Below, piece after piece: positions 25,577 to 27,994 of a stretch of 64,000 nt of DNA. The notes below the pieces were generated by a model. The model was not told the DNA's origin and ran no database searches. It saw only the letters and a list, made by a program, of their open reading frames with translations. This DNA comes from Chara braunii. Lineage: Eukaryota > Plantae > Charophyceae. The position numbers and the translations under genes were made by a program. Where the stretch lies: assembly GCA_003427395.1 (NCBI GenBank), contig BFEA01000010.1:2621202-2685201 (forward strand), read 5' to 3'. The first letter of the stretch is position 1. The number at the start of each line of letters is the position of its first letter.

Positions 25577-26355
25577 CTACCAGTCTACCCTTCCAATCTC
25601 TTCTGCAGACAACCAATCCCCCGTCCAGAAATCATACCCCATACCGAACATTATCGGGATACCAAAGATGCATGCCCTGATCTTCATTTCGGCTTTAAGC
25701 TTCCTCCAATAAGTTTGTCTTGGCTCCATATGGTGGACACGAATAAACGTATCTACCGTGGACAGGACGTCCTCAAAGTCTTTATCAGCCAAATCTGGCT
25801 CCATCTCCAAGTACAAACAATAAAGAACTTGCGGCGTAAAAAAATCGCACCTCCCAGAGGCACGACTATGGCGGCCCGAACTGCTTGTTCTACATTAGTA
25901 GGGCTGTGAAAAACTTCATCAATGATGATGAAGTCTGGCAGGGTAGATTTTACGTAGTCGGTAGGGTAGACGAAGTCCGACGCCCACCTTGCTTCTATCA
26001 TGGGTATAATCGATCGAAATTCCCCCCACCTTTCCTCTCTGATCTTGTCCTCTAGGATTGCTCTTGTAATCAGGAGATACCTGGATAATGGTTGATTATG
26101 TCCCACTGCCAAGTCGATGCCGTGCATTCTCCACAAGTGCGACGAGAGGCAAAGGGTTACTCGAACTATTATACTTTCTCGGTCCGAGGTATGCCAAAAT
26201 TCTACCCATACAAATGCTTCTGGCCCAATCGGGGCCCCCCACCATGAGGTGATTTCTTCTTCCTTCACGCTTAGCCCCTGGGGCAACAACATCCTTAATC
26301 CCAACCTGGTTCGGATGGGCAGCTCAATCCCAATTCCCCGAGTAGCGTACGGCAT
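25577..26355 (-). pseudogene. E2 accessory ORF-B3, unknown Trp-rich protein, one frameshift
   Basis: ORFs 25753-26418 and 25577-25816 together align end to end with ORF-B2 (SWWG.P, VRVT, LYLEM, GIPIMFG..Y..W.GDW). Confidence 0.8.
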
Positions 26356-26640
26356 CTTGAGTGATTTCCTGGCGGCCTGTGAAGTGCAAAAGAAAAACAA
26401 AAAACACACAATACTCACTCATAAGTCTTACCTCGTTGTGTCATTCCTCCTTATATCATAATTAAAATTTCTCTCATTTTTCTTAATCCTGTTCGAGTCA
26501 CCTCCTTTGTCTTCTTCCCTCGTCTTTTTCCCTTCTTCATCTCACTTCTTTATCGCTTTATAATTCACATAAGTAATGTCCTCCTTCACCTCCTTCCCTT
26601 CCTTACAACTTATGCCTTAGCATCTTACCCCATAATCGTT

Positions 26641-27425
26641 TTATAATATAAACCCCCTCTCTTCCTCTTCCATTTCTTCTACCGTCACCCAGTCCCCAGA
26701 CCATAAGTTATAAACTAACCCAAACATGATGGGAATGCCATCTACGCAGATTCCGGACCGCACTTCCTCCTTCAATTTCTCCCAGTACCCAAATCGCTCC
26801 TCCATTAAATAATCTCTAGCGTACGCGTTTACGATGGACAACACGTTGCTAAAACCACTCTCGGCGAGTTCGAAGCCCATTTCTAGGTATAGGCAGTAAA
26901 TCATGTGAGGGGTGGAAAAATCATACCCCCTATTAGGTACTCTAAGTGCGGCTTCAGCGACCATCTCTACCCTTTCTTGACCAAAAAACAACTCTTGGAC
27001 CATAAAATCCAGGAGCGTGGTTCTAACGTAACGGACCGGAAGAGTAAAGTCTTTGGCCGGAAGCATTTTGATTTCCTTTAAAACTTCTCTTGTGTCTATC
27101 CATGGACCTTCCCTCTCCCAAATTCTGAGTTTCACTTCTGCCATCCCAGTGAGTAATAGCAGATAGTCTTCCACCCATTGATCGAAATTTGATTCATAAT
27201 CATGCCAGAGACTCGCAGCCAGGTAAATGGTGACTCTCACACTACGCCATTTTTCCCTCGTATTCCAACTCATTTCTACCCATAAAAATGTCTCGCCCAA
27301 TAACGGGTAACCCCACCATGATTCACTAAGTTCTGCTCGACTTCTTCCTTTTGACAGCGTCATTCTAGCCCATCATCATTCCTAATTGGCGCCTTGACCT
27401 TGGACACTTGCTTTGTAAAGGGCGT
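26641..27425 (-). CDS. E2 accessory ORF-B2, unknown protein (240 aa open; ancestral start probably 27425)
   Basis: Intact ORF 26641-27363, paralogous to B3. Upstream CAAGACGCC corresponds to the B3 start CAAGATGCC. Confidence 0.75.
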
Positions 27426-27559
27426 CTTGATCAAATCTCGAAGATCTGTCACAAGGGTAAGTCAAAGGACAACTTATTTAATGTACTTCTTCAACCACTA
27501 ATTTTTGGGTGCCCTTACTATGGAATAGCCTGACTTAAAGATAGGTACCCTTTTCTCGC

Positions 27560-27994
27560 AGTTTTCCTGACAAACCTCCTTTATTCTTTAACTTCCCTTG
27601 GTCTGATCTCTCATAAGAGCCCAAATTACCTTTCCTCAATTCAACTTAGATGGGTTCTCCTCACGCCTCTCATTTAGTTAGTGATGAGAGAAACTCCCGT
27701 CTTCACCCTATCTTACTCCCCTTCTTTAGACGATCCTTTTATATATCAAGTACGAGATTGGTCCGCAAGTTCTCTGATGCGATATACAGAGTAACCTTCT
27801 CTACCGCACAGTTCTCGCCCCTAACCCATCCAAACTCAATCCTGATGAAGGCTCGCTCCCTCATAGACACTCCCCAACAATACCCTGTCTCCTTATTTTT
27901 CCTTATGACGAGTTGGTAGATTCATCATTAGGTCTTGCCTCATTAGTGCGGGCTCTCTGATCGCGTTTTGATATCGGGCAGACGCCATGCTCAT
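27560..27994 (-). pseudogene. E2 accessory ORF-B1, degenerate third paralog (3' end approximate)
   Basis: Manual translation gives CWGVSMRERAFIRIEFGWVRGENCAVEKVTLYIAS, similar to B2 WWGYPLLGETFLWVEMSW..VRVTIYLAA. Starts CAAGATG. Confidence 0.6.

Follow-up and report, generated by a model that had tools for sequence, protein, structure and literature searches.

An old, apparently selected family of accessory genes upstream of gag in a giant Chara retrotransposon

Most of the extra open reading frames (ORFs) carried by plant LTR retrotransposons have no homologues, and even their usefulness has been doubted, as far as the available text of PMC6317226 and PMC7264820 goes. Three neighbouring ORFs of this kind, B1, B2 and B3, lie on the minus strand of a 64,000-nucleotide stretch of Chara braunii DNA (the window), where a sequence-only reading had described them as a triplicated, Trp-rich protein family upstream of the gag of an element, E2. 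We asked whether they are genes that the element has kept, and what they might do for it. The sequence evidence indicates a real, old and selected accessory-gene family in a giant retrotransposon of a Chara type. The family makes a clean case for the general problem: an old gene under purifying selection, with duplicates inside one element, an intact copy in a pol-less relative and exact predicted splice junctions.

The element that carries the B genes

The host of B1-B3 is E2, a multicopy LTR retrotransposon on the minus strand of the window. Its domains follow the order gag, protease, RT, RNase H, integrase in a Pfam scan that gave no match for gag itself, and this order places E2 in the Ty3/gypsy group; among solved structures, Ty3 is the nearest to the E2 RT. 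The pol region (18607-23848, minus strand) is spread over several broken frames, and the gag region (23849-25253, minus strand) is broken by stops and shares 32% identity over 193 aa with the gag-like ORF of a related locus, L001. No Chromo match was found behind the integrase (18610-19233), in a scan that did return one in a neighbouring element (57477-58079, E 5e-4). Nor did the linker between RNase H and integrase, either in the window or in related gene models, match a second or archaeal-type RNase H, which argues that E2 is not an Ogre. The neighbour is a separate plus-strand gypsy element (52388-58829) with 520-bp LTRs that are 93% alike, a Met-type primer motif and a weak chromodomain match, and it looks like an ordinary chromovirus.

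A 6.4-kb repeat pair (41626-35229 and 14430-1, 90-96% match) marks the E2 LTRs, which start with TG and end with CA. We place the 5' LTR at 28848-41626 (minus strand), which would give it a length of 12.8 kb, possibly with nested DNA; the part from 35228 to 28848 is assigned indirectly, the inner half not being comparable with the 3' copy. A jump in contig depth, with 29-39 contigs per run that have unlike loose ends, sets the end at 28848, and the block at this end aligns with the LTR end of L001. The primer binding site (28827-28845, minus strand) lies directly behind the 5' LTR, is near-identical to the L001 site and is presumably of the tRNA-Asp type. The 3' LTR (1-14430, minus strand) is at a K2P distance of 0.028-0.063 (2.8-6.3%) from the 5' copy. 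It is interrupted by a solo LTR (452-8535), which splits the second member of the repeat pair, and it runs off the window, so that its end lies outside. Together with an internal region of 14.4 kb, LTRs of 12.8 kb would bring E2 to a probable total of ~40 kb, and both this length and that of the LTR would be greater than those that the available text of PMC6431247 reports for Ogre and Burro.

The solo LTR, of ~8.1 kb and with N gaps, belongs to the L001 family and sits in the opposite orientation within the E2 3' LTR. It carries 63-64-bp tandem arrays that do not match the 71-bp arrays found at 31040-33332, inside the probable E2 5' LTR, and the latter match neither the solo LTR nor L001. Family-specific tandem repeats in non-coding DNA are a weak and common feature; large non-chromoviruses commonly carry such arrays (PMC6317226, available text). 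A short palindrome recurs near the start of three LTRs (14404-14417, 41600-41613 and 465-478) and also in L001. Full-length U6 snRNA matches (Rfam, 76 and 57 bits) were observed at 3125-3240 of the window, in the solo LTR, and at 6300-6415 of L001, in its 3' LTR. Because each occupies the same place behind homologous 63-64-bp repeats, U6 evidently travels with this family of LTRs; the E2 LTR gave no U6 match, and a literature search returned nothing on U6 together with Cassandra.

Between the LTR end and gag lie B1-B3. In contigs from four DNA runs (1935-2253 per run; one study, possibly the window's own source), B1-B3 are covered like gag in 30 of 30 bins, which indicates that they belong to the multicopy family. 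The full layout has four accessory ORFs upstream of gag and pol and three downstream. The fourth upstream one, ORF A (28117-28630, minus strand), is unrelated to B and of low complexity, with a basic, RG-rich start followed by an acidic part, and has no Pfam match; its start is placed from relatives, and the ORF (28626-28117) lies outside the stretch covered by the sequence-only reading. Contig depth over the ORF A DNA is several times that over B1-B3, and ORF A may therefore be common to more families. The downstream ORFs C1, C2 and C3 (16169-18477, minus strand) include a gag-N-like ORF (C1) and a coiled coil (C2). C1 (17831-18477) resembles an additional gag N-terminal domain: the corresponding part of gene model P0004 matches the L001 gag (E 0.002), and gene models of the distant family have a similar piece.

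Extent, selection and relatives of the B genes

B2 (26641-27425, minus strand) has ~260 codons and a frame break after about the first 20. The open frame, 26641-27372, accounts for 243 codons, and the first ~20 residues are read in another frame (27425-27363), as revealed by the 82%-identical gene model P0005; the window copy has no start codon where P0005 begins. B3 (25577-26355, minus strand) has ~258 codons and one frame break near 25850. The two proteins align with 36% identity over 156 aa (E 3e-21) and, in another piece, with 51% identity over 84 aa (E 1e-30), and the short motifs listed for them beforehand are all present in both (26641-27372 and 26355-25577, minus strand). B1 (27430-27994, minus strand) is a partial, broken paralogue in which homology is confined to 27988-27772. 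Three profiles built without B1 recovered it as the next-best match among the 2607 six-frame pieces of the window (E 2.4e-4, 1.3e-5 and 7e-7), the match covering profile positions 29-72 (27903-27772) together with a weak piece at positions 1-31 (1.1 bits). Its final ~110 codons showed no detectable homology in the profile comparison. The sequences thus point to two full-length paralogues, B2 and B3, and one partial one: the claim of a triplicated family stands for B2 and B3, and in B1 it extends over only ~70 N-terminal codons. The description as Trp-rich likewise needs tempering, since Trp content is moderate (5.0% in B2, 4.1-4.5% in B3 and 3.4% in distant members).

Over 225 aligned codons, synonymous differences between B2 and B3 are saturated (pS 0.87) and nonsynonymous differences are far fewer (pN 0.38), with a bootstrap range for pN/pS of 0.36-0.52. 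We therefore regard the duplication as old and kept by purifying selection. Identity at codon positions 1, 2 and 3 is 0.54, 0.65 and 0.36, and the resulting gap of 0.29 between second and third positions exceeds that in all 300 of 300 neutral simulations, which were also aligned as proteins and reached at most 0.175. The B homologue of L001 shows the same codon-position pattern against both B2 and B3. Past selection at the protein level, proposed beforehand on the strength of retained motifs, is borne out by these values, which are far from the ratio near 1 that would have spoken against it. All four related gene models compared share 65-82% identity with the window over B2, and 44-75% over the pieces of gag, pol and the 3' ORFs, where some pieces are linkers; B2 is thus conserved at least as well as gag, pol and the 3' ORFs in all four.

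Searches for relatives returned 1 of 537, 3 of 2150 and 11 of 7997 candidates, and 10 matches among 1.84 billion representatives. Of the 17 distinct homologues, 14 are named Chara braunii gene models, one is an NCBI protein that carries no name, and two are short fragments from ENA. A further candidate, P0014 (QueF-like repeats, E 3e-5), was rejected, with an hhalign probability of 18% and a score that vanished with a wider profile. A tree of 11 rows, from which B1 and the short or C-terminal-only rows were left out, separates three deep lineages, namely a B2-like one, B3 and a distant group, with mutual identities of about 25-37%. A B2 scan of metagenome and viral contigs for loci gave no match, and a literature search found no description of this Chara family.

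Could B be a captured host gene that rides along as a passenger and was duplicated by template switching? B1 is largely decayed and the window copies of B2 and B3 each carry a break, as such a passenger might. The indels at the B1 and B3 breaks vary among contigs, however, the gag and pol of this copy are broken too, and the LTR copies are 2.8-6.3% apart, all of which fits decay of this B copy after insertion. The strong purifying signal also speaks against a passenger, as does the absence of any cellular homologue among the 1.84 billion representatives, and hence of the recently captured host gene that the sequence-only reading had named as a possible objection. B is moreover present family-wide, whereas transduced genes are described in one or a few copies in the available text of PMC7264820. 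We consider the passenger reading largely refuted and give it very little weight.

L001 (1-6639) has an LTR end, a primer site, an intact B ORF of 236 codons, gag and an LTR, and it has no pol. Its gag retains a zinc knuckle, has one stop in the ORF and is only 32% identical to that of E2; B occupies the same position in both, between the primer site and gag. B has thus been retained in a family in which pol was lost, as seen at this single pol-less locus, the one relative for which flanking DNA was seen.

The proteins themselves are acidic (pI 4.5-6.4) and have no membrane segment (highest 19-residue hydropathy 1.26) and no arginine-rich stretch. The 45 residues that they share are mainly aromatic, hydrophobic, Gly and Pro, with no shared Cys or His and no zinc knuckle. 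Acidity together with the lack of a membrane segment and of a Cys/His cluster argues against both an envelope protein and a nucleocapsid-type chaperone, so that RNA chaperoning, one of the roles first put forward for B, is disfavoured. Envelope-like ORFs are frequent among Athila-lineage elements that have a tRNA-Asp primer site (PMC1142308, available text), which would recommend an envelope-like or cell-to-cell movement protein. Such proteins would be expected to have a membrane segment and to lie 3' of pol, and B has none and lies 5' of gag; we think this role most improbable.

Domain and fold searches were largely negative. Pfam holds no family for B1, B2, B3 or their homologues, in which no DNA-binding domain was recognised and the plant mobile domain (PF10536) was not matched; the Athila ORF-1 domain (PF03078) gave no match either. 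A sequence search of the PDB returned 0 matches at E 10, and Foldseek against its pdb and viral sets gave none at E 0.001. Two models of modest quality (pLDDT 61 and 54) share a topology with an N-terminal antiparallel sheet, two helices, a strand and then a helical half. The best VIA structure matches to these models were helical bundles (Z 6.3), a helix-grip fold of the START/SRPBCC type for the N-terminal domain (Z 5.9, rmsd 4.5, 96 residues aligned) and gelsolin (Z 5.3, rmsd 3.6, 80 aligned); they disagree with one another and are all within the range of common arrangements. Structure prediction, which had been suggested as a check, thus yielded an agreed topology and no fold assignment. 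In the Atlas, fungal DUF7730 clusters scored 0.90 but shared only 112-117 of 256 features with B2, and P0011 returned no usable match. Direct DNA binding would be awkward for a protein that is acidic and has no recognised DNA-binding domain. There is no sign of an enzyme, and the profile would suit a protein-binding adaptor.

Predicted spliced messages

On one shared message, the upstream ORFs would stand in the way of gag, and we therefore looked for splice sites. An acceptor was defined as YAG with no AG in the preceding 20 nt and a pyrimidine count, the rule and its thresholds having been set after sites had been seen. Three of the five best among 1414 AG sites fall 20-25 nt before B2, B3 and C1. 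At a laxer threshold, a predicted acceptor lies 15-25 nt upstream at five of six ORF starts, two of which (A and B2) were placed from relatives; the same rule is passed by 9 of the 329 remaining ATGs, by 171 of 2575 positions in spacers (binomial P ~7e-6 for the comparison with spacers) and by 25 of 177 ATGs on the antisense strand, which is pyrimidine-rich. On the minus strand, the predicted acceptors are at 27446-27469 for B2 (20 nt before its start position), at 26377-26400 for B3 (21 nt before the ATG) and at 25274-25297 for gag (20 nt before the ATG), with others at 28630 for ORF A and at 18477 for C1. Under this rule, no acceptor was predicted before the start of B1. The gag of L001 is also preceded by a predicted acceptor.

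A consensus donor is predicted near the LTR end, at 29013 (29008-29016, minus strand). Its 9 bases are identical in the three LTR ends available (E2, the solo LTR and L001), although the surrounding block is itself well conserved (124 of 255 columns). We set aside a donor-like site at 25363, since other copies vary inside it. Acceptors are also predicted at 20001 in pol, between RNase H and integrase, and at 24791 in gag, and these might give rise to further subgenomic messages. None of 15 listed DNA joints (72 in all) in the contigs of the four DNA runs corresponds to a predicted intron. Three poly(A) runs from one study (8.9, 16.7 and 16.2 million records), searched with a mapped stretch that excludes the donor and with no positive control, contributed 31, 108 and 7 reads, most of them partial, with no joints and no sign of sense expression. 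The predicted sites suggest that B2 and B3 would each have a spliced mRNA of their own, with one mRNA per ORF.

Such a multi-acceptor layout would call for a regulator like Rev, acting on splicing or export so that the unspliced genomic RNA escapes its many acceptors, and the accessory proteins of retroviruses have been put forward as a model for extra ORFs (PMC7264820, available text). The acidic B proteins, with no arginine-rich stretch, are poor candidates, and ORF A with its basic, RG-rich start would fit better. We therefore think it unlikely that B has this function.

A partner of Gag or of the particle, serving assembly, nuclear import or integration targeting, has somewhat more in its favour: B stands beside gag in the pol-less element and directly upstream of it in both loci seen, and the models suggest a soluble, folded protein. 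Separate messages for B and gag, as predicted, would however leave nothing to tie B to its own RNA, and three deeply diverged B lineages, set against a single gag in each element, give little reason to think of a fixed structural partner. On balance this explanation seems rather doubtful.

Proposed role of B and comparison with known systems

The reading that we prefer, tentatively and at somewhat less than even confidence, is that B is a family-specific counter-silencing or activating factor acting in trans. Its first step, that the B genes belong to the element family and are conserved as proteins, is very probably right. In a second step, which we consider likely, a leader reaching as far as the donor near the LTR end would be spliced to alternative acceptors ~20 nt ahead of B2, of B3, of gag and of one 3' ORF, so that each ORF would come first on its own message; the spliced RNAs would lack the primer site, and only unspliced RNA would be copied. 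In a third step, which may well be wrong and which we offer as a working proposal, B, being soluble and apparently non-enzymatic, would bind host silencing or chromatin factors at the LTR of its own family, and duplication and divergence of B would provide wider or renewed targets. A family-specific factor is suggested because B is kept in a pol-less family, where a general trans factor could presumably be borrowed. Such a counter-silencing or activating role is favoured because of that same retention, the constrained divergence of the paralogues and the family-specific LTR arrays, which recall the targets of VANC.

The most ambitious version of this proposal would make E2 a ~40-kb plant-lineage element resembling a complex retrovirus, in which one LTR leader is spliced to separate messages for gag and up to seven accessory ORFs, and B a new class of family-specific anti-silencing factors, duplicated in an arms race with the host; taken as a whole, we find this doubtful. 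Roles for B beyond those considered here have a small chance of being correct. A counter-silencing role for B, if real, would carry the VANC strategy over to retrotransposons and to an alga related to the land plants.

VANC proteins, encoded by the VANDAL Mu-like DNA transposons, resemble B in being accessory proteins that are encoded by the element and diverged between related families, and the two share the association with family-specific tandem repeats in non-coding DNA (PMC5735166, available text). They differ in that VANC is dicot-specific and MAIN-like in structure, as described in the available text of PMC13547354, whereas B is acidic, borne by a retrotransposon, shows no such domain in the Pfam searches and is known here from sequence.

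Extra ORFs, 5' sense ones included, are already known in plant gypsy elements, according to the literature available in part, and Ogre (Tat clade, Ty3/gypsy) is the obvious comparison. Like E2, Ogre elements are giant by virtue of long LTRs, with a sense ORF upstream of gag and tandem arrays (PMC6431247 and PMC6317226, available text). The parallel with Ogre that had been drawn beforehand thus holds for the layout; it fails in that E2 has no second RNase H and in its number of extra ORFs, of which Ogre is described with one or two (PMC6431247, available text) and E2 has four upstream and three downstream. The 12.8 kb that we estimate for the E2 LTR would be twice the 6.5-kb Ogre maximum of the same text. 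The plant mobile domain, which gave no Pfam match in E2, occurs in 57% of Ogre elements. The Ogre/Tat primer site is given as tRNA-Arg (PMC9289625, available text). The difference in primer type depends on our own assignment of the E2 site.

The Athila lineage (Athila, Calypso and Diaspora) resembles E2 in its extra 3' ORFs and, if we have typed the E2 site correctly, in a tRNA-Asp-type primer site (PMC1142308, available text), and further in having neither a second RNase H nor a chromodomain. In Diaspora, donors are likewise predicted in the LTR and acceptors at the start of gag, although its leader is described as lacking extended ORFs, and no intron upstream of gag had been reported as of 2005 (same text). 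E2 has no match to the Athila ORF-1 domain, which is recorded in only 16% of Athila elements.

Complex retroviruses such as HIV and the foamy viruses combine one leader donor with alternative acceptors before each ORF, the arrangement predicted in E2. In the retroviral scheme, accessory genes are expressed from spliced mRNAs that share one leader donor. E2 departs from it in that most of its accessory ORFs are on the 5' side of gag, gag has its own predicted acceptor, the conserved donor precedes the primer site and no envelope is recognised. Subgenomic splicing of gag in the Ty1/copia elements EVD and BARE similarly provides one protein with a message of its own; it is the protease that is spliced out there, and this splice was not found conserved in Arabidopsis gypsy elements (PMC5580714, available text). 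The splices predicted in E2 would instead skip upstream ORFs.

The pol-less L001 has its closest parallel in non-autonomous elements of the TR-GAG type. These are defined by LTRs, a primer site and gag in the absence of pol, all of which applies to L001. L001 is unlike them in that it has kept an intact accessory ORF upstream of gag.
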